A DNA stretch of 64,000 nt from Escherichia coli (GTDB lineage: Bacteria > Pseudomonadota > Gammaproteobacteria > Enterobacterales > Enterobacteriaceae). The number at the start of each line of letters is the position of its first letter. The first letter of the stretch is position 1. The notes below the pieces were generated by a model that saw only the letters and a program-made list of their open reading frames with translations, was not told the origin of the DNA and made no database searches. Made by a program: the position numbers and the translations under genes. The DNA lies in the NCBI RefSeq assembly GCF_016026235.1, contig NZ_CP065613.1; one strand, given 5' to 3'. Positions 8,421 through 60,424 of this stretch are shown here, in pieces.

Positions 8421-8606
8421 GACCAGAAAACGTGATTTAACGCCTGATTTGTCGTACCTGGAGTCTTCCCTTTCGCCCCCCGTCTGGTCTACATTTGGGG
8501 GGCGAAAAAAAGTGGCTATCGGTGCGTGTATGCAGGAGAGTGCTATTCTGGCATTTCCGTCGCACTCGATGCTTAGCAAGCGATAAACACATTGTAAGGA
8601 TAACTT

Positions 8607-8879
8607 ATGAACAAGACTCAACTGATTGATGTAATTGCAGAGAAAGCAGAACTGTCCAAAACCCAGGCTAAAGCTGCTCTGGAGTCCACTCTGGCTGCAA
8701 TTACTGAGTCTCTGAAAGAAGGCGATGCTGTACAACTGGTTGGTTTCGGTACCTTCAAAGTGAACCACCGCGCTGAGCGTACTGGCCGCAACCCGCAGAC
8801 CGGTAAAGAAATCAAAATTGCCGCAGCTAACGTACCGGCATTTGTTTCTGGCAAGGCACTGAAAGACGCAGTTAAGTAA
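8607..8879 (+). CDS. hupA: DNA-binding protein HU-alpha (90 aa)
   Basis: [90 protein letters not shown]. Confidence 0.96.
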
Positions 8880-8891
8880 GATTGCGTGGCA

Positions 8892-9587
8892 GTGAACAGT
8901 TTTAACGAAGGGGTGGTTTCACCCCTTTTGTCTTTCTGGCGTCGATCATTGATGCTGGCAGGTGCGCTGTTTCTCACTGCCTGTAGCCACAACTCTTCAC
9001 TTCCTCCCTTTACCGCCAGTGGATTTGCTGAAGACCAGGGCGCGGTACGCATCTGGCGAAAAGACAGCGGCGATAATGTGCATCTTCTTGCCGTGTTTAG
9101 CCCGTGGCGCAGTGGCGATACCACGACGCGAGAGTATCGCTGGCAGGGCGATAACCTCACGCTCATCAATATCAATGTTTACAGCAAACCGCCGGTGAAC
9201 ATTCGTGCGCGTTTTGACGATCGCGGTGATCTGAGCTTTATGCAACGTGAATCCGATGGGGAAAAGCAGCAGCTTTCTAACGACCAAATCGATTTATACC
9301 GTTATCGTGCTGATCAGATCCGCCAGATTAGCGATGCCTTACGTCAGGGGAGAGTCGTGCTGCGCCAGGGTCGCTGGCATGCGATGGAACAGACCGTGAC
9401 CACCTGCGAAGGGCAAACCATTAAACCTGATTTAGATTCGCAGGCGATAGCGCATATCGAGCGCCGCCAGAGCCGCTCTTCTGTTGATGTCAGCGTGGCA
9501 TGGCTGGAAGCGCCCGAAGGTTCGCAATTACTGTTGGTGGCAAACTCTGATTTCTGTCGCTGGCAACCCAACGAGAAAACGTTCTGA
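8892..9587 (+). CDS. yjaH: DUF1481-family putative lipoprotein YjaH; GTG at 8892 gives the K-12-style 231 aa product, ATG at 8952 is the biologically more plausible start
   Basis: ORF 8886..9587; MLAGALFLTAC lipobox begins at 8952; the hupA terminator lies inside the longer reading. Confidence 0.85.
   Translation: MNSFNEGVVSPLLSFWRRSLMLAGALFLTACSHNSSLPPFTASGFAEDQGAVRIWRKDSGDNVHLLAVFSPWRSGDTTTREYRWQGDNLTLININVYSKPPVNIRARFDDRGDLSFMQRESDGEKQQLSNDQIDLYRYRADQIRQISDALRQGRVVLRQGRWHAMEQTVTTCEGQTIKPDLDSQAIAHIERRQSRSSVDVSVAWLEAPEGSQLLLVANSDFCRWQPNEKTF
8909..8936 (+). terminator. rho-independent terminator after hupA
   Basis: Hairpin AGGGGTGgtttCACCCCT followed by TTTGTCTTTCT. Confidence 0.65.
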
Positions 9588-9588
9588 T

Positions 9589-10008
9589 TTACCAGTGGCC
9601 CATACCCATATGACCGCCACCACCGCAGCCGCCGTAACCCATTCCGGTACCGCGCGGAATACCCGCTTCAGCCATCGCAATATCTCGTTTCACCCGTAAC
9701 TCATCTAACGACTGACGCAAATTCTCCATCTCTTTGGCGACCGCGTTAATTTTGCTGCTATCCGGTGGGTTCGCGGCTAACAGGGCATTGTATTCATAAC
9801 GCTTCGTCACCAGTTGCTGTTGCAGTGCGCTGCTTTGAGCGTAAAAGTCATTATGGATTTTCTGCCACGCTGTCTGTTGTTCGCTGGTCAAAGGCGCGGC
9901 ATTTTGCTGCCACATACCGTGTCCGCCGTGAGCAAATGCCGATGTCGATCCCATCGCCATTGCTGAAAGCGCCATCATCACCAGGGCAATTTTCGTGTTC
10001 CGTTTCAT
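9589..10008 (-). CDS. zraP: zinc-resistance-associated periplasmic protein ZraP (139 aa, Gly/His-rich C-terminus)
   Basis: MKRNTKIALVMMALSAMAMGSTSAFAHGGHGMWQQ...; ATG at 10008 confirmed; upstream track extension is artefact. Confidence 0.9.
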   Translation of the reverse strand: MKRNTKIALVMMALSAMAMGSTSAFAHGGHGMWQQNAAPLTSEQQTAWQKIHNDFYAQSSALQQQLVTKRYEYNALLAANPPDSSKINAVAKEMENLRQSLDELRVKRDIAMAEAGIPRGTGMGYGGCGGGGHMGMGHW

Positions 10009-10042
10009 GGTTAATCCTCCAGTGGTTGTCTTACTTCGGGTA

Positions 10043-10060
10043 TTGCATCTTCCGTGCCAA
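10043..10060 (-). promoter_or_regulatory. sigma54 (-24/-12) promoter of zraP
   Basis: Reverse strand TTGGCACGGAAGATGCAA: GG and GC elements separated by 10 nt. Confidence 0.7.
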
Positions 10061-10101
10061 CGATGAAACGCTGATATGACGGGTAATCTGGCATGATAAA
10101 C

Positions 10102-10147
10102 GAGTAAAAATGACTCGCCTGCTGCGGGTAGCGAGTCATTTTTACTC
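10102..10147. promoter_or_regulatory. ZraR enhancer: 17-bp perfect inverted repeat between the divergent zraP and zraSR promoters
   Basis: GAGTAAAAATGACTCGC-N12-GCGAGTCATTTTTACTC. Confidence 0.75.
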
Positions 10148-10198
10148 ATTGAAACTTAAGCCTTTGTGTTACAGCGCAGGGTAAGCGCTGATAAAAGA

Positions 10199-10214
10199 TG
10201 GCATGATTTCTGCT
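10199..10214 (+). promoter_or_regulatory. sigma54 promoter of zraSR
   Basis: TGGCATGATTTCTGCT with GG/GC spacing of 10 nt, ~30 nt upstream of the zraS ATG. Confidence 0.65.
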
Positions 10215-10245
10215 GTCAGAAAGGGATGAGCAGGCAAAGAAGAAG

Positions 10246-11622
10246 ATGCGTTTTATGCAACGTTCTAAAGACTCCTTAGCTAAATGGTTAAGCGCGATCC
10301 TCCCCGTGGTCATTGTTGGGCTGGTGGGGCTGTTTGCGGTGACGGTGATTCGCGATTATGGGCGCGAGACTGCCGCCGCCAGACAAACGCTGCTGGAAAA
10401 AGGCAGTGTACTTATTCGCGCTCTTGAATCCGGCTCGCGCGTCGGCATGGGGATGCGCATGCATCATGCGCAGCAGCAGGCCTTACTGGAAGAAATGGCC
10501 GGGCAGCCTGGTGTACGTTGGTTTGCGGTCACGGATGAACAAGGAACAATCGTGATGCATAGCAACTCCGGCATGGTGGGAAAACAGCTTTATTCCCCGC
10601 AGGAAATGCAGCAGTTACATCTGGGAGATGAAGAAGCGTGGCGGCGGATCGATAGCGCAGACGGTGAGCCTGTTCTGGAAATTTATCGCCAGTTTCAACC
10701 GATGTTTGCTGCTGGAATGCACCGGATGCGCCATATGCAGCAGTATGCCGCGACACCACAAGCAATTTTCATCGCTTTCGACGCCAGTAATATTGTGAGT
10801 GCCGAAGATCGTGAGCAGAGAAACACCCTGATTATCCTCTTCGCCCTGGCGACGGTCTTGCTGGCAAGCGTGTTGTCATTCTTCTGGTATCGCCGCTATC
10901 TGCGCTCGCGCCAGCTGTTGCAGGATGAAATGAAGCGCAAAGAGAAGTTGGTGGCACTGGGGCATCTTGCGGCAGGTGTTGCCCACGAAATCCGTAACCC
11001 ACTTTCCTCGATTAAAGGACTGGCGAAATACTTTGCCGAGCGCGCGCCTGCAGGGGGAGAAGCGCATCAACTGGCGCAGGTGATGGCGAAAGAAGCTGAC
11101 CGCTTAAACCGCGTGGTAAGCGAGCTGCTGGAACTGGTTAAGCCAACGCATCTGGCTTTGCAGGCGGTGGATCTCAACACGCTGATTAACCACTCATTAC
11201 AGCTGGTAAGCCAGGATGCAAACAGCCGGGAGATCCAGTTACGCTTTACCGCCAACGACACATTACCGGAAATTCAGGCCGATCCGGACAGGCTGACTCA
11301 GGTCCTGTTGAATCTCTATCTCAATGCTATTCAGGCGATTGGTCAGCATGGCGTGATTAGCGTGACGGCCAGCGAAAGCGGCGCGGGCGTGAAAATCAGC
11401 GTTACCGACAGCGGTAAGGGAATTGCGGCAGATCAGCTTGAAGCCATCTTCACTCCGTACTTCACCACCAAAGCCGAAGGCACCGGATTGGGGCTGGCGG
11501 TCGTGCATAATATTGTTGAACAACACGGTGGTACAATTCAGGTCGCAAGCCAGGAGGGAAAAGGCTCAACGTTCACCCTCTGGCTTCCGGTCAATATTAC
11601 GCGTAAGGACCCACAAGGATGA
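10246..11622 (+). CDS. zraS: sensor histidine kinase ZraS (458 aa)
   Basis: Two TM segments and periplasmic domain, then HisKA (LGHLAAGVAHEIRNPL) and HATPase_c (GTGLGLAVV) motifs. Confidence 0.92.
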   Translation: MRFMQRSKDSLAKWLSAILPVVIVGLVGLFAVTVIRDYGRETAAARQTLLEKGSVLIRALESGSRVGMGMRMHHAQQQALLEEMAGQPGVRWFAVTDEQGTIVMHSNSGMVGKQLYSPQEMQQLHLGDEEAWRRIDSADGEPVLEIYRQFQPMFAAGMHRMRHMQQYAATPQAIFIAFDASNIVSAEDREQRNTLIILFALATVLLASVLSFFWYRRYLRSRQLLQDEMKRKEKLVALGHLAAGVAHEIRNPLSSIKGLAKYFAERAPAGGEAHQLAQVMAKEADRLNRVVSELLELVKPTHLALQAVDLNTLINHSLQLVSQDANSREIQLRFTANDTLPEIQADPDRLTQVLLNLYLNAIQAIGQHGVISVTASESGAGVKISVTDSGKGIAADQLEAIFTPYFTTKAEGTGLGLAVVHNIVEQHGGTIQVASQEGKGSTFTLWLPVNITRKDPQG

Positions 11623-12944
11623 CGCACGATAATATCGATATTCTGGTGGTGGATGATGACATTAGCCACTGCACTATTTTGCAGGCTTTACTGCGCGGCT
11701 GGGGCTATAACGTCGCGCTGGCGAACAGCGGGCGACAGGCGCTGGAGCAGGTGCGGGAACAGGTTTTTGATCTTGTGCTTTGCGATGTGCGAATGGCGGA
11801 GATGGACGGCATCGCCACGCTGAAAGAGATCAAAGCGTTAAACCCGGCGATTCCGGTACTGATTATGACCGCGTACTCCAGCGTCGAGACGGCGGTAGAA
11901 GCGTTGAAAACCGGGGCGCTGGATTATCTCATCAAGCCGCTGGATTTCGATAACCTACAGGCGACGCTGGAAAAGGCGCTCGCGCATACGCACAGTATTG
12001 ATGCTGAAACACCTGCGGTGACTGCCAGCCAGTTCGGTATGGTCGGTAAAAGCCCGGCGATGCAACACCTGCTCAGTGAAATCGCCCTCGTCGCGCCATC
12101 GGAAGCCACGGTGCTGATCCACGGCGATTCCGGCACCGGTAAAGAGCTGGTCGCCAGGGCGATTCACGCCAGTAGCGCACGTAGCGAAAAACCGCTGGTA
12201 ACGCTCAACTGTGCGGCACTCAACGAATCCTTACTGGAATCTGAATTGTTCGGTCACGAAAAAGGGGCGTTTACTGGAGCCGATAAACGCCGGGAAGGGC
12301 GCTTTGTTGAGGCGGACGGCGGCACGCTGTTTCTCGATGAAATTGGCGATATCTCGCCGATGATGCAGGTGCGTCTGCTGCGTGCGATTCAGGAGCGCGA
12401 AGTTCAGCGTGTCGGTAGCAACCAGACTATCTCGGTTGATGTCCGGCTGATTGCGGCGACCCATCGCGATCTTGCCGCAGAGGTGAATGCCGGGCGTTTT
12501 CGCCAGGATCTCTACTATCGCCTGAATGTGGTGGCGATTGAAGTACCATCGCTGCGGCAACGGCGGGAAGATATCCCTCTGCTGGCTGGCCATTTTCTGC
12601 AGCGCTTTGCCGAGCGTAATCGCAAGGCGGTAAAAGGTTTTACGCCCCAGGCGATGGATCTGTTGATTCATTACGACTGGCCGGGAAATATTCGTGAGCT
12701 GGAAAACGCGGTGGAACGGGCAGTGGTGCTGCTGACCGGGGAATATATTTCCGAACGCGAGCTGCCGCTGGCGATTGCCAGTACGCCGATCCCGCTGGGG
12801 CAAAGTCAGGATATTCAGCCGCTGGTGGAAGTGGAAAAAGAGGTGATTCTGGCGGCACTGGAGAAAACGGGCGGCAACAAAACTGAAGCCGCCCGTCAGT
12901 TAGGGATCACGCGTAAAACGTTATTGGCAAAACTGTCGCGTTAG
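11619..12944 (+). CDS. zraR: sigma54-dependent response regulator ZraR (441 aa)
   Basis: Receiver domain, AAA+ sigma54-activator core ([23 protein letters not shown]), C-terminal HTH; overlaps zraS by 4 nt. Confidence 0.93.
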
Positions 12945-14230
12945 TTCTGCTCGCGTTCGATAGCACGCCAGCCGATATCTTTCCGGCAGAAGCAGTCGTC
13001 CCAGTGGATATCGGTCATTAAGGCATAGGCGCGTTTCTGCGCTTCTGCCACGGTATGACCCAGCGCGGTGACGCACAGTACGCGTCCGCCGTTGGTCACT
13101 ACCTGCTCGTCATCCGCCAGTTTTGTGCCCGCGTGGAACACTTTGCCGCCTGCCACTTCTTCCAGCGGCAGGCCGTGGATCACGTCACCGGTGCGGTAAT
13201 CACTCGGATATCCACCCGCAGCCATCACCACGCCGAGAGAAGCGCGTTCATCCCACTCGGACGTTTTCTCGTCCAGTTTGCTTTCACAGGCCGCCAGGCA
13301 GAGCTCAACCAGATCGGACTTCATGCGCAGCATAATCGGCTGGGTTTCCGGATCGCCAAAGCGGCAGTTAAATTCAATAACCTTCGGATTGCCCTGTTTG
13401 TCGATCATCAGGCCCGCGTAGAGAAAACCGGTGTAGGTGTTGCCTTCCGCCGCCATGCCTTTCACGGTTGGCCAGATAATACGTTCCATGGTGCGCTGAT
13501 GAACGTCATCGGTTACTACCGGCGCGGGGGAGTAAGCGCCCATCCCGCCGGTGTTTGGTCCGGTATCTTTATCGCCTACGCGTTTGTGATCCTGGCTGGT
13601 AGCCATCGGCAGCACATGCTCGCCGTCCACCATCACGATAAAGCTCGCTTCTTCGCCATCGAGGAACTCTTCGATAACGATGCGATGACCCGCGTCGCCA
13701 AAAGCGTTGCCCGCCAGCATATCGTGAACAGCCGCTTCCGCTTCTTCCAGCGTCATCGCCACGATAACGCCTTTCCCGGCAGCCAGACCGTCCGCTTTAA
13801 TGACGATTGGCGCGCCTTTCTCACGCAGATACGCCAGCGCAGGTTCTACCTCGGTGAAGTTCTGGTATTCCGCCGTAGGGATCTTATGGCGGGCCAGGAA
13901 ATCTTTGGTAAACGCTTTTGAGCCTTCCAGTTGGGCCGCACCTGCGGTTGGGCCGAAGATTTTCAGCCCGGCGGCGCGGAAGGTATCGACCACGCCTTTC
14001 ACCAGCGGCGCTTCCGGGCCGACGATGGTCAGATCAATCTTTTCGTTTTGTGCGAAATCCAACAGCGCCGGGATATCGGTCACGCCAATAGCAACGTTTT
14101 GCAGCGCGGGTTCCAGCGCAGTGCCTGCATTACCCGGAGCAACAAAAACAGTCTCAACCAGCGGCGACTGGGCCGCTTTCCAGGCCAGCGCGTGCTCGCG
14201 CCCGCCGTTACCAATCACTAATACTTTCAT
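12941..14230 (-). CDS. purD: phosphoribosylamine-glycine ligase PurD (429 aa)
   Basis: MKVLVIGNGGREHALAWKAAQSPLVETVFVAPGNAGTA... Confidence 0.95.
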   Translation of the reverse strand: MKVLVIGNGGREHALAWKAAQSPLVETVFVAPGNAGTALEPALQNVAIGVTDIPALLDFAQNEKIDLTIVGPEAPLVKGVVDTFRAAGLKIFGPTAGAAQLEGSKAFTKDFLARHKIPTAEYQNFTEVEPALAYLREKGAPIVIKADGLAAGKGVIVAMTLEEAEAAVHDMLAGNAFGDAGHRIVIEEFLDGEEASFIVMVDGEHVLPMATSQDHKRVGDKDTGPNTGGMGAYSPAPVVTDDVHQRTMERIIWPTVKGMAAEGNTYTGFLYAGLMIDKQGNPKVIEFNCRFGDPETQPIMLRMKSDLVELCLAACESKLDEKTSEWDERASLGVVMAAGGYPSDYRTGDVIHGLPLEEVAGGKVFHAGTKLADDEQVVTNGGRVLCVTALGHTVAEAQKRAYALMTDIHWDDCFCRKDIGWRAIEREQN

Positions 14231-14241
14231 CTATTGCTCCA

Positions 14242-15831
14242 TTAATGGCGGAAGTGGCGCATGTCGGTGAAGAGCATCGCAATACCGTGCTCGTCGGCGG
14301 CGGCAATCACTTCGTCATCACGGATGGAACCGCCAGGCTGGATTACGCAGGTCACGCCCGCAGCGGCGGCGGCATCAATACCGTCGCGGAACGGGAAGAA
14401 CGCGTCAGAAGCCATCGAGGAACCTTTCACTTCCAGGCCTTCATCGGCAGCTTTAATACCGGCGATTTTCGCGGAGTACACGCGGCTCATCTGGCCCGCG
14501 CCAATACCGATGGTCATATTGTTTTTGGCATAGACGATAGCATTGGATTTCACGAACTTCGCCACTTTCCAGCAGAACAGCGCATCGCGCAGTTCCTGTT
14601 CGGTCGGCTGACGTTGGGTGACGACGCGCAGTTCTTCCGCACCGACCATCCCCAGGTCACGATCCTGAACCAGCAGACCGCCGTTCACGCGTTTGAAATC
14701 AAGACCCGGAACACGCTCGCCCCACTGACCGCAGGTCAGAACGCGTACGTTCTGCTTGGCGGCGGTGATTTTCAGGGCTTCTTCGCTGGCGGAAGGCGCA
14801 ATAATCACTTCGACAAACTGACGAGAAATGATGGCCTGTGCGGTTTCCGCATCTAGCTCGCGGTTAAAGGCAATGATGCCGCCGAATGCGGAGGTTGGGT
14901 CGGTTTTGTACGCGCGATCGTAAGCATCAAGAATGGAATTGCCGATAGCTACACCGCAAGGGTTGGCGTGCTTCACAATCACACATGCCGGCTCGGCGAA
15001 CTCTTTCACGCACTCCAGCGCCGCATCAGTATCGGCGATGTTGTTATAAGAGAGGGCTTTACCCTGAACCTGGGTTGCGGTAGCAACGGAGGCTTCTTTC
15101 ACATTCTCTTCTATATAGAAGGCAGCCTGCTGGTGGCTGTTCTCGCCGTAACGCATATCCTGCTTCTTAATGAAGTTCAGGTTCAGCGTGCGTGGGAAGC
15201 GACCGGCGGCTTCTTTGCTTTCACCGTGGTAAGCCGGAACCATGCTGCCGAAGTAGTTGGCAATCATGCTGTCGTAGGCGGCAGTGTGTTCGAAGGCTTT
15301 GATGGCGAGGTCGAAACGGGTTGCAAGCGTCAGCGATCCTTCGTTGGCATCCATCTCTTTAATAATGGCGTCGTAGTCGCTACTCTTCACCACGATTGCG
15401 ACATCTTTATGGTTCTTGGCGGCGGAGCGCACCATCGTTGGGCCGCCGATATCGATGTTCTCAACCGCATCTTCCAGCGAGCAACCTTCACGGGCCACAG
15501 TCTGGGCGAACGGATACAGGTTAACAACCACCATATCGATAGGCTGGATCTGATGTTCTTCCATAATGGCATCGTCCTGGCCGCGACGGCCCAGAATGCC
15601 ACCATGTACTTTCGGATGCAGGGTCTTCACGCGTCCATCCATCATCTCCGGGAAACCGGTGTAATCGGAAACTTCGGTTACCGGCAGACCTTTTTCTGCT
15701 AACAGACGGGCAGTGCCCCCTGTAGACAGCAGCTCCACACCGCGTGCGGAAAGTGCCTGGGCGAATTCGACGATACCGGCTTTGTCAGAAACACTGAGCA
15801 GAGCGCGGCGGACTGGACGACGTTGTTGCAT
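14242..15831 (-). CDS. purH: bifunctional AICAR transformylase / IMP cyclohydrolase PurH (529 aa)
   Basis: [44 protein letters not shown]... Confidence 0.95.
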
Positions 15832-15938
15832 GGTAAATCCCCTGGATTTGACTATTACAGAGAGCGTTAGCTGAATTTTTCGCGAAAAACTCAGCTAACG
15901 CCCCTAACGGGGCATCTTTATTTTTCGCCCGCATTGTA

Positions 15939-26488: not shown

Positions 26489-30379
<3,891 letters not shown>

Positions 30380-38413: not shown

Positions 38414-39643
38414 TTAATCATGGGAAATTGCCTCTGCATGAGTGAGCAGATATTGCTCCGCCTCACCGGACCAGATCCCCTGATGACGCGCCAGAATCGC
38501 CGCCAGTGCTTGATCCTTAATCTGCGTGAGTGACGTCAGCGGCAGGTATTTCCCGGTATACACCAGCTTTTTGCCGCCGCCGACGGCAGGCAATTCAAGC
38601 GTGGTTTCGCCCGCGGCATTCAGCCCAAGAATATGTGTTACCACTTTTGCGGCCTGCACTTTTTTCTCTTCGATCAGTTTGACCGCCGCGCGCATGTCGT
38701 CGGTATTGCCGCCTGACGTGCCCACGTAGTGGGTAAATGCATAATGCACATCGTAGAAATTAATTGGCGCGCTGAAATGTTTATCCTGCGGTCCGGCGAA
38801 GAAATTCAGGCAACCATCTGTCGCCAGCAAGGAAGAGGCGAGAGTCACCAGTCCTTCATTAGGCACAAAGACGAAAATATCATCGAAGCCGTGACCGCCA
38901 CTCAGCGCCATTAACGTATCAAATGCTGCATCGGTGGCATTGAGATAATGAATCAGTGTTTGCGGTTCTGATGGATAGTGCTTGCGCGCATAACTCAATT
39001 TATCGTTGTCGGTATCGGTAATGACGAGCAGCGACGGGTTAACTGGTCCATGCAGCGCATAATCAATCGCCAACAGTCCCATTGGTCCGGTGCCGCCGAG
39101 GATCAGCGTGCGCCCTTGCGGGCGAATCCCCATCGTGTGGTTATAACTACCTTCCTGAAGATGATAGTTGGCGTTGAACGCGCCAATCACGCAGGAAAGC
39201 GGTTCAACCAGTGAGCCTTCAAAATAGGTTTCGCCGTCGTATGCCAGCAGGCAATCTTGTTCCATGACCTCGTTGGGAATAACCACATGCGTGGCTTCGC
39301 CGCCCACCCACGGGAAGGAGTAGCCGGGGCAGTCCGGGCGGTCGGGGAGTTGCAGGTTGGCCTGAATCACATAACGCTGACCCGGCTGGAATTTGTGCTG
39401 CCACTTTTTACCCAAGGCCAGAATATCGCCGCAAAACTCGTGGCCGATGATGATGGGGTTGGTCGCCACATCGTCGGGTACTTTTTTATGGTTTTCACCC
39501 AGATTGGCCTCTTTCCAGGAAGAGAGGCACAGGCTGTCAGTGACCACCGTCGCGAGGATTTCATCCTCCTGCATTTCAGGAAGGTCAAAGGTTTCCAGGC
39601 GTAAATCACGTTTACCATAAAGACGCAGAGCTGTTGTTTTCAT
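38414..39643 (-). CDS. sorE: L-sorbose-1-phosphate reductase (Zn-dependent MDR-family dehydrogenase)
   Basis: MKTTALRLYGKRDLRLETFDLPEMQEDEILATVVTDSLCLSSWK...; MDR fold (GHEFCG); ATG 39643 preceded by GAGGTGG. Confidence 0.8.
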   Translation of the reverse strand: MKTTALRLYGKRDLRLETFDLPEMQEDEILATVVTDSLCLSSWKEANLGENHKKVPDDVATNPIIIGHEFCGDILALGKKWQHKFQPGQRYVIQANLQLPDRPDCPGYSFPWVGGEATHVVIPNEVMEQDCLLAYDGETYFEGSLVEPLSCVIGAFNANYHLQEGSYNHTMGIRPQGRTLILGGTGPMGLLAIDYALHGPVNPSLLVITDTDNDKLSYARKHYPSEPQTLIHYLNATDAAFDTLMALSGGHGFDDIFVFVPNEGLVTLASSLLATDGCLNFFAGPQDKHFSAPINFYDVHYAFTHYVGTSGGNTDDMRAAVKLIEEKKVQAAKVVTHILGLNAAGETTLELPAVGGGKKLVYTGKYLPLTSLTQIKDQALAAILARHQGIWSGEAEQYLLTHAEAISHD

Positions 39644-39694
39644 AAACCACCTCATGTTGAGCGATGGCCCCGGCAGTCGTGCCGGGGCGAAGAA

Positions 39695-40519
39695 TCAGGA
39701 CAGGAAGCCCAGCGCATTACCGATAATCCCTAAGCCAAACAGGGCGAAAATCAGCCATACCGGGTTAATTTTTTTGTTGAGCAGACGAACCATAAGCAGC
39801 GTCAGACCGAGCGCCAGCAAACCAGGGCAAAGTTGGTCGAGAATGTTCTGCACGGTCATGGTGACGGTGGAGCCATCGGCGGCATGCGTTTGTGAAACCA
39901 CCAACGGTACGTTGATTGACGTCCATTTGGTGACCAGCACGCCCATCACAAACAGTCCGAGAATCGACGCGCCTTCGGTGAGTTTTTGCAGCACATTCCC
40001 GCCCATATCGCTGACGATATTCACCCCTTTGCGAAAGCCGAGCTGTAGGCCATACCACTTCATCGCCAGACGCACCGCATTGAAAATAAAGAAAAACAAA
40101 AGCGGGCCGAGGATGTTGCCAGAAAGTGCCAGAGATGCGCCGAGCGCAGCGGTAATCGGGCGCAGCGTTCCCCAAACCAGTGGATCGCCAACCCCTGCCA
40201 ATGGTCCCATCAGACCGACTTTGATGCCGTTAATGGTACCGTCATCAATTTCCGCGCCGTTGGCCCGCGCCTCTTCCATGGCGGCAGTGACGCCGATGAC
40301 CGGGCCACATACGGCTGGCGTGGTATTGAAGAACACCAGGTGTCGCCTGAGCGCCGCAACCTGATCCTCTTTTAATGGGTAAAGTCGCTTGATGGCGGGG
40401 ATCATGTCGTAGCAAAAGCCCAGCCCGTGAATACGTTCAAAGTTAAAGGACGCCTGTTGCAGGTTGGAGCGCAGAAACATGCTCACCAGATCGCTGCGTG
40501 TAATTTTTCTCTGTTCCAT
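39695..40519 (-). CDS. sorM: PTS mannose/sorbose-family EIID component
   Basis: MEQRKITRSDLVSMFLRSNLQQASFNFERIHGLGFCYDMIPAIKRLYP... typical EIID; ATG 40519 preceded by GGAG. Confidence 0.8.
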   Translation of the reverse strand: MEQRKITRSDLVSMFLRSNLQQASFNFERIHGLGFCYDMIPAIKRLYPLKEDQVAALRRHLVFFNTTPAVCGPVIGVTAAMEEARANGAEIDDGTINGIKVGLMGPLAGVGDPLVWGTLRPITAALGASLALSGNILGPLLFFFIFNAVRLAMKWYGLQLGFRKGVNIVSDMGGNVLQKLTEGASILGLFVMGVLVTKWTSINVPLVVSQTHAADGSTVTMTVQNILDQLCPGLLALGLTLLMVRLLNKKINPVWLIFALFGLGIIGNALGFLS

Positions 40520-40529
40520 GATGGCTCCG

Positions 40530-41327
40530 TTAATCGTCAAGTTGGTCAAGGGCGGTGGAGGTGGTGGCCTGGGGTTGAGGTTCAGCTTTACGCCACTGTG
40601 GATTTAGCTGGATGTAGACCAGGGCCATGATCACGCCGACGCCACCGAACGCCAGCAGACTGAGATCGAGGTAGCCACCTGCGAGGAAACCGAGGAAAAA
40701 GAAAGGCATCAAATATTTCACGCCCATCATACGTAGCACCATGGCGTAACCGACCACCACGATAAAACCGCCAGCAATTTGCAGACCGCGCGTCACGAAT
40801 TCCGGTATCGCGCTCAGCATATTGCTCACCATATCGGCGCTGACGAACAGTGAGACAATCAGTGCCGGAATAGCAACGCGCAGCGCCTGCACGCCAAGCG
40901 CGGAGACATGCAGAATATCGAGAGTGCGAAACCGTGCTTCTTCCGCTGCTTTATCCGCCGCGTGCTGGAACACTACGGTGATGGTACGGGCAAACACAGT
41001 CAGCACCTGGCCTGCCGCAGCCACAGGCAACGCGATGGCGATTCCGGTGGCGATGCTTTGCTGACCAACGATAACCAGAATGGCGGAGATTATGCTGGCG
41101 AGTGCAGAATCCGGAGATTGCGCCGCGCCGACGTTCATCCAGCCGAGAGCTATCAATTCCAGCGTACCACCGAGTATTATTCCGGTTTTTAAATCACCGA
41201 GAATTAAACCAATCACCGTACAGGCAATTAACGGGCGATGAGTCTGGAATTCATCCAGCACGCTGCCCATTCCGGCAATACAGGAAAAAAGAAATATAGC
41301 AATAATTTGTAGGGTACTTATTTCCAT
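40530..41327 (-). CDS. sorA: PTS mannose/sorbose-family EIIC component (265 aa)
   Basis: MEISTLQIIAIFLFSCIAGMGSVLDEFQTHRPLIACTVIGLILG... polytopic EIIC. Confidence 0.8.
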   Translation of the reverse strand: MEISTLQIIAIFLFSCIAGMGSVLDEFQTHRPLIACTVIGLILGDLKTGIILGGTLELIALGWMNVGAAQSPDSALASIISAILVIVGQQSIATGIAIALPVAAAGQVLTVFARTITVVFQHAADKAAEEARFRTLDILHVSALGVQALRVAIPALIVSLFVSADMVSNMLSAIPEFVTRGLQIAGGFIVVVGYAMVLRMMGVKYLMPFFFLGFLAGGYLDLSLLAFGGVGVIMALVYIQLNPQWRKAEPQPQATTSTALDQLDD

Positions 41328-41392
41328 GATTTGTCACCTTTTAAGTGTCGTCATCCCTGCCTGTTAAAGCATATGTACACTGGCGCTATTAT

Positions 41393-41887
41393 TTAATTTG
41401 CGATTAACTGTTCGTTTATTTTGTCGATAATATTGATTGAGGGATCTGACGCTACGACGCGTAAATCCAGTATGACGCCAAGATTATTTAACTCATGAAA
41501 TGCGTTAATATCATCATCATCTAATGAAACCGCTTTGGTTAACTGTTTTTTACCGGGCCGCCAGGCCATGCCGCCAATATTCAGGGTGCCTATTTTTACC
41601 CCCTGGCGAACCATCGCTAAGGCATCCTGTGGGCGAGTGAAAAGATAAAAAACGGTTTCGTCCTGATATTGCGGGTTGTGATAAACCGCGACGGCTTTTT
41701 CAATATTGACCACGTTAACCTTCATTCCCGGTGGCGCAGCCTGACGCAATAATGTCCGGCGAACTTCATCGTTATAAACTTCGTCATTGCAGATAATAAT
41801 GCGCTGGGCGTTAGCCACTTTCGACCAGACGGTAGTGACCTGACCGTGGATCAGGCGGTCATCAATGCGGGCGAGCGTAATGTTCAT
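41393..41887 (-). CDS. sorB: PTS mannose/sorbose-family EIIB component (164 aa)
   Basis: MNITLARIDDRLIHGQVTTVWSK... EIIB-Man signature with phosphorylatable His. Confidence 0.8.
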   Translation of the reverse strand: MNITLARIDDRLIHGQVTTVWSKVANAQRIIICNDEVYNDEVRRTLLRQAAPPGMKVNVVNIEKAVAVYHNPQYQDETVFYLFTRPQDALAMVRQGVKIGTLNIGGMAWRPGKKQLTKAVSLDDDDINAFHELNNLGVILDLRVVASDPSINIIDKINEQLIAN

Positions 41888-42294
41888 CAGAAATCCTCCT
41901 CTGTCGTTGCCAGTTGTTTCCAGACAACGCAGGTTTGCTTTGCGATTTGTGTCAGGTGTTCACACAGTTCATCAACATTCATGCTGTCCTGGTTATCAAC
42001 CAGTTCGAGCGCCAGCGGCAGAGAAAGGCCGCTGATTACCCGCAGACGAGGATTGCGCATCGCAAGCATCGCTGCCGCATTCCACGGGCTGCCGCACTGT
42101 AAATCCACGGCAATCAGCCACTCATCTTGATTGTGAATGCTTACTAACTTTTCCAGCTTTGCTACGATGTCTCCGGCGTTCTCGCCGGGCACAAATTCAA
42201 CTGCCTCGACCCTGGCGTCGCCGTACACCATCTGAACCGATTCCAGCATGGCGCAAGCTAATTTGCCGTGGGCGCAAAAAATGGCATTGACCAT
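41887..42294 (-). CDS. sorF: PTS mannose/sorbose-family EIIA component (135 aa)
   Basis: MVNAIFCAHGKLACAMLESVQMVYGD... EIIA-Man fold; stop overlaps the sorB start by 1 nt. Confidence 0.8.
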   Translation of the reverse strand: MVNAIFCAHGKLACAMLESVQMVYGDARVEAVEFVPGENAGDIVAKLEKLVSIHNQDEWLIAVDLQCGSPWNAAAMLAMRNPRLRVISGLSLPLALELVDNQDSMNVDELCEHLTQIAKQTCVVWKQLATTEEDF

Positions 42295-42303
42295 AAAGCC
42301 TCC

Positions 42304-43110
42304 TTAGCCGCGCGTTTTGCCGCCCGCAATGTTAGTGGTTACTCCGGTGATATAGCTGGCGCGTTCAGACAGCAGATAACAAACAAAATCAGCGACTTCT
42401 GCTAATCTTCCGGCGCGCCCAATAGGAATGGCGTTTTTGGTATAGCCTTCACGCAGCTGCTCGACGGTGATATTGCGCGTCCACGCCAGCGCTTCTTCAT
42501 ATTCCGGCGTGCGCAGTCCTGTTTTTTCCAGAATCCCCGGCGCGATACCGACCACACGGATACCGTGTTTACCCAATTCTTTCGACCAGGATCGCGTGAA
42601 GCTATTAAGCGCGGCTTTGGTAGCGGCGTAACAGCTTTGGCCTTCTGAGCCTTCCAGTCCACTTTCTGAGGAAACATTCACAATCACGCCATCATGTTGT
42701 TTGACCATCTGTCGCGCCACCGCCTGCGACATCAGAAAAACGCCTTTCTGGTTGATATTGAACATTTTTTCGAATGCAGCTTCGTTGAGTTCATACTGCC
42801 CGGCAGGCGCTTTGTCATCGACCAGCAGACGCGGGAAATTGACCCCGGCGTTATTGACCAGACCGTCGATGCGACCAAAACGCTGGATAATTTCCGCTAC
42901 CGTATGATTTACCTCTTTGGCGCTGGAAATATCGGTCGGCCAAAACTGATAGCCTTTATGACCTTCATATTGACCATCGCCACCGTGAATATCTACCATC
43001 TGTACGTTTGCGCCTTGTGCTAATAATTCCTCTACAATCGCCAGACCAATACCGGATGCGCCGCCGGTGACGATAATGATTTTATCCTGCAAATTTAACC
43101 ACGTTTGCAT
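42304..43110 (-). CDS. sorD: D-glucitol-6-phosphate dehydrogenase (SDR family, 268 aa)
   Basis: MQTWLNLQDKIIIVTGGASGIGLAIVEELLAQGANV... with TGGASGIG Rossmann motif and YxxxK. Confidence 0.8.
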   Translation of the reverse strand: MQTWLNLQDKIIIVTGGASGIGLAIVEELLAQGANVQMVDIHGGDGQYEGHKGYQFWPTDISSAKEVNHTVAEIIQRFGRIDGLVNNAGVNFPRLLVDDKAPAGQYELNEAAFEKMFNINQKGVFLMSQAVARQMVKQHDGVIVNVSSESGLEGSEGQSCYAATKAALNSFTRSWSKELGKHGIRVVGIAPGILEKTGLRTPEYEEALAWTRNITVEQLREGYTKNAIPIGRAGRLAEVADFVCYLLSERASYITGVTTNIAGGKTRG

Positions 43111-43179
43111 AACAGACTCCTGATTTTAGATAATAGGGACCCGCCGTAATTTTTATTACGGTAAACATCGGGAAGATTT

Positions 43180-44127
43180 TTATTTCAGTAATAGTTCAGC
43201 TGTGCTGCTATTCGTTACCAGACAATTAATATATTTTCCACGCAGTGCACCAACAATTCCGCTGTATTTTTCTTCACTCATGGCAATGCCAATGGAATAC
43301 CGCGCCTGCTTTAATTTATTCATTTCGATAGAGAGTGTTTTTTCGCTCATATTCGTTTCAACCATTGCGCCGTGAATATCAAAAAAGCGCGAGCAAATAT
43401 CGCCAGCAACCTGGCGGGCATTCAGGTCGTCACTCTCTTCACCACCATAAAACGCATGCCAGTTAGCGCCGTCGCGAATGGCCGGTGAGCCAATTCCCAC
43501 CAGGGCGACATCCAGATTATCCCAGTAGGCAGAGATGGTTTTAAAGTGCTGAGACTGCATGATCCCATTACGAATTAATGGGTTATCCAGCAGAGCCGGA
43601 AAATCCGCGAGATGCGATTCCCCTTTCAGCTTCGCTGCCGCGCTGTAGGTTAATGTGTTTACGTGATAGCGGCTTTCGAGTTTACCGGACGGTCCGCCAA
43701 TAATTGGTACGCAGATTAACTGCCGCGATTGCCCCGCCTGCGGCAAGTTTTCAACCAGTGCGCTCACCGCGCGACCCCAGGAAAAACCGACAATATCGCC
43801 AGGTTCCAGCAAGCGATCCAGCAGTTGCGCGCCGTGTAACCCCATCATCGCCAGTTGAGTCTCTTCATCCTCATCATTTCCCGACACCACCACAACGTCT
43901 TTCAGGCCAAACTTTTGCTTCAGTTGCTGCTCCAGCCAGAGATTTTCGTTGTAGTCATAGTTGATGGCGATGGTGACAATTCCCTGATCGCGGCCTCGTT
44001 TAAGCAAGCGGCTGATGGTGGTGCGGTAAATACCCAGTTCGAGCGCGATTTGCGCCTGCGTCATATCCTGTTCGTAATAGAGTTGGGCAATCTTCACAAT
44101 CAAACGGATATCGTCACTGTTTTCCAT
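43180..44127 (-). CDS. sorC: SorC-family sugar-binding regulator of the sorbose operon (315 aa)
   Basis: MENSDDIRLIVKIAQLYYEQDMTQAQIALELGIYRTTISRLLKRGRDQG... N-terminal HTH; ATG 44127 preceded by AGGAGG. Confidence 0.8.
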   Translation of the reverse strand: MENSDDIRLIVKIAQLYYEQDMTQAQIALELGIYRTTISRLLKRGRDQGIVTIAINYDYNENLWLEQQLKQKFGLKDVVVVSGNDEDEETQLAMMGLHGAQLLDRLLEPGDIVGFSWGRAVSALVENLPQAGQSRQLICVPIIGGPSGKLESRYHVNTLTYSAAAKLKGESHLADFPALLDNPLIRNGIMQSQHFKTISAYWDNLDVALVGIGSPAIRDGANWHAFYGGEESDDLNARQVAGDICSRFFDIHGAMVETNMSEKTLSIEMNKLKQARYSIGIAMSEEKYSGIVGALRGKYINCLVTNSSTAELLLK

Positions 44128-44474: not shown

Positions 44475-45347
44475 ATGCTGCCCGACTCATCAGTCCGTTT
44501 AAATAAATACATCAGCGAAAGCGGAATTTGCTCACGCCGCGAAGCGGATCGCTATATCGAGCAAGGCAATGTGTTCCTTAATGGCAAGCGAGCCACCATT
44601 GGCGATCAGGTGAAACCCGGCGACATTGTGAAAGTAAACGGTCAGTTGATTGAGCCTCGGGAAGCCGAAGATTTGGTACTTATCGCCCTGAACAAGCCCG
44701 TCGGTATTGTCAGCACCACCGAAGATGGCGAGCGCGATAACATTGTCGATTTCGTTAACCACAGCAAACGCGTGTTCCCGATTGGCCGCCTGGATAAAGA
44801 CTCCCAGGGGCTGATTTTCCTCACCAATCACGGCGATCTGGTGAATAAGATCCTCCGTGCGGGTAACGATCATGAGAAAGAGTATCTGGTGACGGTAGAT
44901 AAACCGATTACCGATGAATTTATTCGTGGTATGGGGGCGGGAGTGCCGATCCTCGGGACGGTGACGAAAAAGTGCAAAGTCAAAAAAGAAACTCCGTTTG
45001 TCTTCCGCATTACCCTGGTGCAGGGGCTGAACCGTCAGATCCGTCGCATGTGCGAGCATTTCGGCTATGAAGTGAAAAAGCTGGAACGTACGCGCATTAT
45101 GAACGTCAGCTTAAGCGGCATTCCGCTGGGAGAATGGCGCGATTTAACCGACGACGAGCTTATCGATCTCTTTAAGCTCATCGAAAATTCCTCTTCCGAG
45201 GCAAAACCTAAAACGAAGGCCAAACCGAAAACGGCGGGCATCAAACGTCCAGTCGTTAAGATGGAAAAAACGGCGGAAAAAGGCGGTCGCCCGGCGTCCA
45301 ACGGTAAGCGTTTTACCTCGCCGGGGCGTAAAAAGAAGGGGCGCTAA
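44475..45347 (+). CDS. rluF: 23S rRNA pseudouridine synthase RluF (290 aa)
   Basis: [45 protein letters not shown]... S4 domain + RsuA-family catalytic core. Confidence 0.93.
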
Positions 45348-45620
45348 TCAGCGCCTGCCGCGCGTCGACGTATTTGCTGACCAGCTAAATGACGCTTCAG
45401 GATCCGGTTTATAAGCCTGCTTTTTCTTCAATTGGCGGGCTTTTTTTGCTTCAGCCTCACGCTCAACCATTAATTTATCGATGTAATCTTTCTTAATGCT
45501 GTTGGTTTCGGAGTTGGTCAATACGCGACCATGCGCAATCCGCGCCCGATCCAGCAGTGTTTTAAGTTCACGCTGCTCGCGTTCAGTCATCTCTTTTTGG
45601 GTAATACGGGGGAGTGCCAT
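45348..45620 (-). CDS. yjbD: DUF3811-family protein YjbD (90 aa)
   Basis: MALPRITQKEMTEREQRELKTLLDRARIAHGRVLTNSETNSIKKDY... Confidence 0.9.
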   Translation of the reverse strand: MALPRITQKEMTEREQRELKTLLDRARIAHGRVLTNSETNSIKKDYIDKLMVEREAEAKKARQLKKKQAYKPDPEASFSWSANTSTRGRR

Positions 45621-50263: not shown

Positions 50264-50902
50264 GTGAAGCGACCTGCACTCATTCTTATCTGCCTGCTAT
50301 TACAGGCCTGTTCAGCCACGACTAAAGAGCTGGGCAATTCACTGTGGGACAGTCTGTTCGGCACGCCAGATGTACAGCTGACGGACGATGATATTCAAAA
50401 TATGCCCTACGCCAGCCAGTACATGCAGCTTAATGGCGGGCCGCAGTTGTTTGTGGTGCTGGCCTTCGCTGAAGACGGACAACAAAAATGGGTCACTCAG
50501 GATCAGGCCACTCTCGTCACACAACATGGTCGTCTGGTGAAGACTTTGCTTGGCGGCGACAACCTGATTGAAGTGAATAACCTTGCCGCCGACCCGCTGA
50601 TTAAACCCGCACAAATTGTTGATGGTGCAACATGGACGCGCACGATGGGCTGGACCGAGTACCAGCAGGTACGCTACGCCACCGCACGCTCAGTCTTCAA
50701 ATGGGATGGCACCGATACCGTCAAGGTCGGCAGCGATGAAACCCCGGTTCGCGTGCTGGACGAAGAAGTCTCCACCGACCAGGCGCGCTGGCATAACCGC
50801 TACTGGATCGACAGCGAAGGGCAAATTCGCCAGTCGGAACAGTATCTCGGCGCAGATTATTTCCCGGTGAAAACCACTCTCATCAAGGCGGCAAAACAAT
50901 GA
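50264..50902 (+). CDS. yjbF: lipoprotein YjbF (212 aa)
   Basis: GTG start 50264 after GGAGA; MKRPALILICLLLQAC lipobox. Confidence 0.88.
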   Translation: MKRPALILICLLLQACSATTKELGNSLWDSLFGTPDVQLTDDDIQNMPYASQYMQLNGGPQLFVVLAFAEDGQQKWVTQDQATLVTQHGRLVKTLLGGDNLIEVNNLAADPLIKPAQIVDGATWTRTMGWTEYQQVRYATARSVFKWDGTDTVKVGSDETPVRVLDEEVSTDQARWHNRYWIDSEGQIRQSEQYLGADYFPVKTTLIKAAKQ

Positions 50903-57532: not shown

Positions 57533-59077
57533 TTAATCAAACTTCATTCGCGTGGCTTTCAGGTTCACTATCGCCAGCGCACCCACCAGCAGGAAGATCA
57601 GCGTGGCAATTGCTGCAGCCAGACCGAAGTCCTGACCCCCGCCGCCTTCAAAAGCGATACGGTAGGTGTAGTTAACAAGCAGGTCGGTATAACCGGCTGG
57701 CGTGGTCGTGCCAAGACGATCCGGGCCGCCGTTGGTTAACAGCTGAATCAGCACGAAGTTGTTAAAGTTAAAGGCGAAGCTGGCGATCATCAGCGGCGTC
57801 AGCGGTTTAATCAGCAGCGGCAGCGTAATCTTAAAGAAGTTCTGGAACGGACCTGCGCCATCCATTGCTGAGGCTTCATACAAATCGTCCGGAATCGCTT
57901 TCAGCAAGCCCATGCAGAGGATCATCATGTACGGATAACCCAGCCAGGTATTGACGATAATTAGCATCGTGCGGGCGGTGGTCGGATCGCTGAACCAGGC
58001 GGGCTTCACGCCAAACAGCGCGCTCAACATCATGTTGATTTCACCGAAGCTCTGGTTAAACAACCCTTTGAAAATCAAGATTGAAATGAATGATGGCACC
58101 GCGTAGGGCAGAATCAGCAGAACGCGATAGACCGCTTTGCCGCGCAATGCTTCCCACTGCACCAGACATGCCAGAACCATGCCGACCGCCACCGTTAAAA
58201 AGACAGTGATCAGCGAGAACACCACGGTCCAGACGAAAATGGCGAGGAACGGTTTCTGAATGCCTTCGTCGGTAAAGACGCGGGTAAAGTTTTTCCAGCC
58301 GGTGGTCACGGTGTAACCGGGGCTTAGCTTTTCATCACCCCAGTTGCCGTCGGCGGTAATGGACTGGTAAAAGCCAATTTGGTTATTCGGACGATATTTC
58401 ACGCCGCTCTGATTATTCGTCAACGTGCCGTCACCGTCGAGTGTGTAGAGCGGCTGCGTGCCAGAAAACTGGCGCAGGGAGCTCATCATCACTTTGTTGC
58501 CATCCGGCAGAATGGCGGTAATGTCACTCAGCGCCTGACGATTCTGGGTAATCACGCGTAGATTTGCGCGTTCGCCTTCGGGCTGGGCGGTCGTTTCTTT
58601 CAGTTGCAGTTTTTGCTCGCCGCCAAATTTAAAAGCGTTGGAGAGGTAATTTTTGCCGGTTTCGCCGTCGCTGAGGGCTAGTTGCCACTCATCGCCCGCC
58701 GGGTAAAGACCAAAATTATAGGTTTTGCCTGCTTGCCAGGAGCGATCTAGCAACACTTCCTGCGCACGTTCAAAAGTCAGCTGGTTAGTGCTGCTGTAGT
58801 TGGTGAAGGCAATGGCGATGGTGCAGACCAGAGGGAAGAGGACGAATAATCCCATTCCAGCCATTCCCGGGTAAACATAGCGCCAGGCGTAGGCTTTACG
58901 ATTGGCGAAAATATACAGCCCCGCTGAACTCAATATCAGCGTGGTAATGGCGAACAGGTATTCCCCTTGTGCGTACATTAAAACAACAAGGTAACCCACC
59001 AGCAGGCCGAGCAGACCTAACACTGACCATTTCAGCGCGTCGCTTTGCCACCAATGTTTCTTTTTAATGACATCCAT
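57533..59077 (-). CDS. malF: maltose ABC transporter permease MalF (514 aa)
   Basis: [40 protein letters not shown]...; ATG 59077. Confidence 0.95.

Positions 59078-59230: not shown

Positions 59231-60424
<1,194 letters not shown>

Follow-up and report, generated by a model that had tools for sequence, protein, structure and literature searches.

Interlocked zraR and purD stop codons in Escherichia coli and a candidate purHD terminator in the synonymous sites of zraR

Introduction

Convergent bacterial genes whose stop codons share bases form a well-described class. Lillo and Krakauer (2007; PMC2174442) recorded 1890 convergent overlaps in 58 species, 672 of them at most 4 nt long and 1218 at least 5 nt long, with a count of 58 for Escherichia coli; the length distribution jumps at length 4, and the 4-nt overlaps were named as the tetramers TTAA, TTAG, CTAA, and CTAG. 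We describe a junction of this kind between zraR and purD in a 64,000-nucleotide stretch of the E. coli chromosome that runs from thiH to malM (contig NZ_CP065613.1; hereafter the window), together with a candidate transcription terminator of the purHD operon that lies inside the zraR coding sequence.

Transcription of closely packed convergent genes has also been documented. Terminators embedded in the coding sequence of the convergent neighbor are known (PMC2174442), the classic cases of overlapping termination are dnaQ-rnh and ilvA-ilvY (cited in PMC4161252), and 276 of 370 convergent operons were found to have overlapping 3′ ends (Conway et al., 2014; PMC4161252). Among genes on the same strand, Huber et al. 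(2023; PMC10666635) describe stop/start overlaps of the −4 (ATGA) and −1 (TGATG or TAATG) types, and overlaps are stated to involve about one third of bacterial genes (PMC4161906).

Results

The zraR and purD stop codons interlock in a TTAG tetramer

The initial annotation had reported that the convergent zraR and purD genes share two stop-codon bases. Direct reading of the plus strand (c-g-t-T-A-G-t-t at 12939–12946), the list of open reading frames (ORFs), and the NCBI Prokaryotic Genome Annotation Pipeline (PGAP) annotation of a 99.9% identical genome, NZ_CP065615.1, all place the two stop codons in the same register (Table 1). Gene ends throughout the window were taken from that PGAP annotation, mapped onto the window, with each start, stop, and frame checked. 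ZraR matches its NCBIfam equivalog over the full length (1–441 of 441, E 1e-300), as does PurD the equivalog purD (1–425 of 425), and because both proteins are full-length equivalogs their ends are genuine; the junction is not an annotation artefact, and both genes are complete and convergent. RluF and YjbD, encoded at a second tight junction in the window, are also full-length NCBIfam equivalogs.

Enumeration of TAA, TAG, and TGA on both strands yielded TTAA, TTAG, CTAA, and CTAG as the only ways in which two convergent stop codons can share bases, with no other register available. Because only these four tetramers are possible, and given the published overlap counts (PMC2174442), the zraR/purD overlap belongs to a common, expected class and has no claim to rarity. 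It resembles that class in consisting of two complete convergent genes whose stops fall within one of the four tetramers; nothing essential differs, and the junction is a plain member. The initial annotation had also called the packing of the window normal for E. coli, and this holds, as its coordinates, gene names, and overlap types are correct and the same classes are described in PMC2174442 and PMC10666635. The zraR/purD observation is correct, ordinary, and already known.

The junction is strongly conserved. The region was found at 90% identity or more in 5419 of 5426 complete E. coli genomes. For comparison across species, one scan of species-representative genomes with a back-translated ZraR motif returned 50 loci, in 44 of which purD is convergent to zraR. 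The genera compared at the junction were Escherichia, Salmonella, Citrobacter, Klebsiella, Kluyvera, Trabulsiella, Kosakonia, Phytobacter, and Pluralibacter, and the overlap is exactly 4 nt in 43 of 44 other enterobacterial zraR/purD loci (TTAG in 37, CTAG in 4, and TTAA in 2), the exception being Klebsiella pneumoniae with 11 nt. Variation in the tetramer is confined to its two outer bases, where it is synonymous in both frames; the changes tolerated without loss of a stop are T/C at base 1 and G/A at base 4. Across the same genomes (loci L004–L052), the spacer of the neighboring convergent pair yjaH/zraP ranges from 1 to 89 nt, being 1 nt in Escherichia and 2–89 nt in the other genera. Compared with this neighbor the zraR/purD junction is unusually frozen, as is to be expected if an insertion or a change to a central base would damage both genes.

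A conserved hairpin and U-tract lie 44 nt beyond the purD stop

Because no intergenic DNA separates zraR from purD, the termination signals of each gene would have to sit within the opposing one. For purHD, transcripts are predicted to end at a putative intrinsic terminator 44 nt beyond the purD stop, composed of a GC-rich hairpin and a U-tract on the antisense strand of zraR helix-turn-helix codons 415–426. The site is similar to the known embedded terminators of convergent genes (PMC2174442), which likewise pair a GC hairpin with a U-tract inside the opposing gene. Eight of the nine base pairs of the stem are G-C, the hairpin folds at −20.8 kcal/mol, and the 121-nt region that contains it has a folding z-score of −2.64; the stems in K-12 are identical to those in the window, as seen in the window and K-12 rows of the alignment. 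A hairpin with a U-rich tail was present at all 45 loci that have purD beside zraR, with folding energies from −13.8 to −21.1 kcal/mol, and the tail UUUUUUCC of most genera is a better one than the UUUUCUCC of Escherichia. Five zraR-like loci do not have purD adjacent (two metagenome-assembled genomes, Serratia sp. DD3, Pragia, and Leminorella), and these use other codons for the same residues and have lost the stem or the U-tract.

Forty full-length zraR genes were aligned by codon to examine the synonymous sites that form the stem. At the six stem codons, a minor codon occurs in 0, 1, 1, 0, 0, and 4 sequences, whereas none of the 75 other invariant Thr, Gly, Ala, or Arg columns of the gene has as few as one or none, their medians being 14–20; no amino-acid-matched resampling out of 200,000 was as low as the stem codons. 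Codons 416–426 are the lowest-entropy window of zraR (0.31 bits against a mean of 1.06), and K416, opposite the U-tract, is AAA in all 40 species. The codon for Thr422, which falls in the loop, varies freely among all four codons. We infer that the hairpin and U-tract are the purHD intrinsic terminator, kept by purifying selection that would act on zraR synonymous sites.

The same pattern could in principle arise from codon bias and shared ancestry, with the hairpin a by-product of the conserved amino-acid motif TGG...AAR and purHD transcription ending through Rho or polymerase collision. Enterobacterial genes use the codons GGC, GCC, and CGT frequently, the species compared are related rather than independent, the Term-seq lists hold no 3′ end at the hairpin, and Rho-termination regions are common behind the convergent genes of the window. 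Set against these points is the behavior of the same 40 genomes elsewhere in the gene, which are free at the 75 other invariant Thr, Gly, Ala, and Arg codons (medians 14–20, compared with 0–1 in the stem), together with the use of all four codons at the loop threonine and the different codons chosen for the same residues at the five loci that have no adjacent purD. We consider this explanation very improbable as a full account. Codon bias contributes something to the conservation of the stem; the within-gene control argues against its being the main cause.

Several points weigh against a purHD terminator at this site. GGC and CGT, which occur in the stem, are common and preferred codons. The E. 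coli U-tract UUUUCUCC is interrupted, and the loop, at 12 nt and partly self-paired, is longer than the typical 3–8 nt, so the short loop of an intrinsic terminator is not found here. Base-pair covariation is uninformative for the hairpin because each synonymous base of the stem pairs with a non-synonymous first-codon base that is fixed by the protein. In the Term-seq lists curated by Adams et al. (2021; PMC7815308), no mapped purHD 3′ end falls at K-12 positions 42044xx–42046xx, and the TERMITe supplements make no mention of purD or zraR. A terminator scan of positions 12000–14000 returned three terminator-like sites, compared with 2.1 expected, none of them at the junction; it missed the conserved hairpin because its loop limit was 8. 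Literature searches on a purHD terminator, on hydG/purD, and on a small RNA from the purD 3′ untranslated region (UTR) returned nothing relevant. A small RNA derived from the purD 3′ UTR was itself considered and judged unlikely, as the 44 nt between the stop codon and the hairpin vary at synonymous sites. An Rfam scan of positions 8500–15900 at E values up to 1 found no family.

A further question is the strand on which the conserved element acts. The hairpin in zraR codons 417–426 might work on the zraR-sense strand, as an mRNA-stabilizing or ribosome-pausing structure, or as DNA, as a protein-binding inverted repeat. Complementarity of the stem is the same on the two strands, as confirmed by folding the plus strand, and natural variants do not tell the strands apart, given that GGC to GGT (L015 and L046) produces a wobble pair on the plus strand and a mismatch on the minus strand while CGT to CGC, in three loci, does the reverse; the lack of an entry for this position in the curated Term-seq lists would fit as well. 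What distinguishes the strands is the U-tract, which adjoins the 3′ side of the stem on the purD-sense strand only, the plus strand continuing instead with CAGUUAGGG. Moreover, purHD has no other terminator, and the hairpin is placed 44 nt beyond the last gene of that operon; zraR-like genes without a downstream purD keep the amino acids and lose the stem or the U-tract. Action on the zraR-sense strand or as DNA therefore appears improbable to us, and termination of purHD remains the preferred reading of the element.

zraSR transcripts are predicted to be terminated by Rho within purD

No counterpart of the candidate purHD terminator was found for the opposing operon. The terminator scan and folding identified no hairpin with a U-tract after the zraR stop, purD has no synonymous trough comparable to that of zraR (minimum window entropy 0.55, mean 0.945), and a matching conserved element sought in the 3′ half of purD was not found. 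zraSR transcripts, having no hairpin terminator, would run into antisense purD, where the read-through would be stopped by Rho 266 nt past the stop codon, after translation has ended at the TAG. In K-12, a bicyclomycin-sensitive Rho region has been reported at 4204911 on the plus strand, antisense to purD, with a score of 4.28 and a p value of 5.7e-8 (Adams et al., 2021; PMC7815308), and this position maps to approximately 13210 in the window, within a stretch of C-rich, G-poor RNA. zraSR here resembles the Rho-terminated antisense read-through of that study, which places regions just past the stops of yjaH (antisense to zraP, score 17.2), aceK (antisense to arpA), rluF (antisense to yjbD), and yjbD (antisense to rluF), as well as zraR. 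Weighing on the other side, those data were obtained from K-12 in lysogeny broth, which is neither the strain of the window nor a condition of induced zraSR. Rho termination of zraSR is published for K-12, and we infer it for the strain studied here.

Overlap of the two transcripts has likewise been observed in K-12. The pairs zraR-purD, yjaH-zraP, and aceK-arpA are among the 165 convergent excludons of MG1655 (ExcludonFinder, 2025; PMC12288877), where a listed overlap is one detected in 50% or more of 58 RNA-seq samples. zraR-purD is like these convergent excludons in having overlapping transcripts; its listing is drawn from RNA-seq coverage only, and a full excludon would also show mutually exclusive expression or RNase III-dependent processing of the pair. 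A more far-reaching proposal is that the interlocked stops and the embedded terminator form a conserved cis-antisense module through which zraSR, induced by zinc or envelope stress, and the purine-regulated purHD operon interfere with each other across the Enterobacteriaceae. Were this true, interference would proceed through polymerase collision, duplex RNA, or altered terminator efficiency, and it would explain why the zraR/purD junction is frozen while neighboring junctions drift. We regard such a module as highly unlikely.

Other convergent junctions in the window

The stop codons of rluF and yjbD had been described as directly abutting, and both the ORF list and the PGAP mapping give a gap of 0 nt between them. 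The abutment is polymorphic within the species: of 5426 E. coli genomes, 3321 have the abutting form contiguous and 1770 carry a single-copy spacer of 132 nt, the form found in K-12 (L054 2228–2359). A quasi-palindrome spans the abutting junction and forms a weak hairpin whose loop contains or adjoins the two stop codons (Table 1). On the yjbD-sense strand the terminator scan reports a hairpin, GGCGCT-GATT-AGCGCC, with CCUUCUUUUU after it, and rluF-yjbD is not on the K-12 excludon list; together these would fit an intrinsic terminator that acts in both directions, for rluF and yjbD alike. The sequence folds no more stably than its shuffled versions (z-scores of −0.27 and +0.50), a U-rich tail follows only in the yjbD sense, with no U-tract on the rluF-sense strand, and the number of terminator-like sites equals the shuffle expectation. 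Two other E. coli alleles have CGT as the last Arg codon, which places a C-A mismatch in the yjbD-sense stem while the abutment is kept, and the K-12 junction differs in having the 132-nt spacer, with Rho regions on both sides, 4231569 (plus strand) and 4231091 (minus strand). A bidirectional terminator at this junction is unlikely, and we rejected it as a candidate on the shuffle-level fold, the one-sided U-tail, and the stem-weakening alleles. The 132-nt spacer of K-12 is itself bounded by inverted copies of the quasi-palindrome of the abutting junction, and K-12 Term-seq places a strong 3′ end inside it (4231270, minus strand).

The tight gene ends listed in the initial annotation are all present. 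The list was incomplete, however, in that the convergent junctions yjaH/zraP and aceK/arpA had been missed. The seven protein-coding convergent pairs of the window have spacings of −32, −4, 0, 1, 43, 46, and 89 nt. At aceK/arpA, the arpA/espL4 gene (28194–30379, minus strand) is a pseudogene in this strain, with five in-frame stops and a frameshift, and still overlaps aceK. At yjaH/zraP, the longer spacers of the other genera hold palindromes resembling repetitive extragenic palindromic elements (GCCGGATG...TTATCCGGCCTAC).

Same-strand overlaps within operons

All eight co-directional overlaps that had been listed for the window were confirmed against the PGAP starts. Such stop/start overlaps would let the terminating ribosome reinitiate on the next gene, and their description as typical of translational coupling is borne out by stop/start types matching those in PMC10666635. 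Six of the eight are of the −4 (ATGA) or −1 (TGATG or TAATG) types given by Huber et al. (2023; PMC10666635) and fall within the thi, zraSR, yjbEFGH, and sor operons, whereas thiE/thiF (8 nt) and thiF/thiS (17 nt) are longer overlaps; coupling in the window is read from the sequence. A Shine-Dalgarno motif precedes most of the overlapped starts, yjbH being without one. The overlaps had also been said to fix reading frames and start sites. They do fix the frames; by themselves they do not prove a start site, and thiE could use either its ATG or the upstream GTG. Counting convergent and same-strand cases, overlaps involve 16 of about 51 genes in the window, which matches the share of about one third of bacterial genes given in PMC4161906.

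Observations on individual genes

The hupA terminator hairpin (GGGGTGGTTTCACCCC then TTTTGTCTTT), at approximately 8915–8940 on the plus strand, falls within codons 1–14 of yjaH as annotated, with a GTG start at 8892. K-12 Term-seq shows a very strong 3′ end at the hupA terminator, classified as "internal yjaH" (4200605, plus strand, 102752 reads), and the start of yjaH or its mode of expression may deserve a second look. The zraP frame (9589–10149, minus strand) is open upstream to an ATG at 10149, which gives 186 amino acids (aa); PGAP annotates a 139-aa protein and a separate 42-aa hypothetical ORF in another frame, and the K-12 annotation has 426 nt (141 aa). The zraP-zraS intergenic region differs from that of K-12 by a net 27 nt, as judged from coordinate offsets.

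Between pepE and rluF, the window carries an L-sorbose operon of seven genes (sorC, sorD, sorF, sorB, sorA, sorM, and sorE; 38414–44127, minus strand); K-12 has no sor operon, and its pepE-rluF distance is only 211 nt. The malE start codon at 60419–60421 (minus strand) reads ATA, compared with ATG in the 99.9% identical reference genome; the K-12 start codon is ATG as well. Because of the ATA, the ORF list begins malE 17 codons later, at 379 rather than 396 aa; the ATA reflects either a genuine mutation of the start codon or an error in the sequencing. An intact malF is present in the window (57533–59077), and the closest reference genome has a frameshifted copy (L002 32634–34177).

Table 1. 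Positions of the gene ends, overlaps, and candidate termination features in the window
Feature	Position	Strand	Description
zraR coding sequence	11619–12944	+	σ54-dependent response regulator, 441 aa; stop TAG 12942–12944; ORF list and PGAP
purD coding sequence	12941–14230	−	Phosphoribosylamine-glycine ligase, 429 aa; stop TAA 12943–12941; ORF list and PGAP
TTAG tetramer	12941–12944		4-nt overlap of coding sequences; stop codons share 12942–12943
Putative purHD terminator hairpin	12867–12896	−	Stem ACGGGCGGC/GCCGCCCGU, 12-nt loop; antisense to zraR codons 417–426
Putative terminator U-tract	12859–12866	−	UUUUCUCC in Escherichia, UUUUUUCC in most other genera; antisense to zraR E415-K416
C-rich, G-poor RNA past zraR stop	13045–13330	+	Antisense to purD; C/G 1.2–1.76 compared with 0.78 within zraR
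rluF coding sequence	44475–45347	+	Stop TAA 45345–45347
yjbD coding sequence	45348–45620	−	Stop TGA 45350–45348, abuts rluF stop
Quasi-palindrome GGCGCT-AATC-AGCGCC	45340–45355		Both stop codons in or next to loop; weak hairpin
yjaH/zraP convergent junction	9585–9591		yjaH TGA 9585–9587, 1-nt gap, zraP TAA 9591–9589
aceK/arpA-espL4 3′ ends	28194–28225		32-nt convergent overlap
thiG stop/thiH start	44–47	−	4 nt, ATGA
thiF 3′ end/thiS start	1000–1016	−	17 nt
thiE 3′ end/thiF start	1748–1755	−	8 nt
thiC stop/thiE start	2383–2383	−	1 nt, TGATG; 4 nt with the alternative GTG start, 3 nt upstream at 2386
zraS stop/zraR start	11619–11622	+	4 nt, ATGA
sorF (IIA) stop/sorB (IIB) start	41887–41887	−	1 nt, TGATG
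yjbF stop/yjbG start	50899–50902	+	4 nt, ATGA
yjbG stop/yjbH start	51636–51636	+	1 nt, TAATG

Discussion

The elements of this locus are already in the literature, including the stop-stop tetramer, coupling through ATGA and TGATG, embedded terminators, Rho clean-up, and overlap of the zraR and purD transcripts. To these the embedded purHD terminator, with its footprint in synonymous sites, would be a small addition of a known kind; it differs from the known embedded terminators in its 12-nt loop and in that the case for it is made from sequence and synonymous-site conservation. Taken as a whole, we consider it likely that the window reflects ordinary gene packing, with a purHD terminator embedded in zraR, zraSR terminated by Rho, and same-strand overlaps that serve translational coupling. 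The value for annotation is that reading frames and ends are confirmed by the junctions for about 20 genes, and that the window is seen to be a normal segment of E. coli chromosome.

zraR/purD offers a clean example of how two genes handle termination with no spacer between them, in which one operon apparently has its terminator encoded in synonymous positions of the gene opposite, producing the deepest synonymous trough in zraR, and the other operon uses Rho. Recoding or deleting the 3′ end of zraR would be expected to affect purHD termination, and scans for synonymous constraint will flag embedded sites of this kind for reasons unrelated to the protein.

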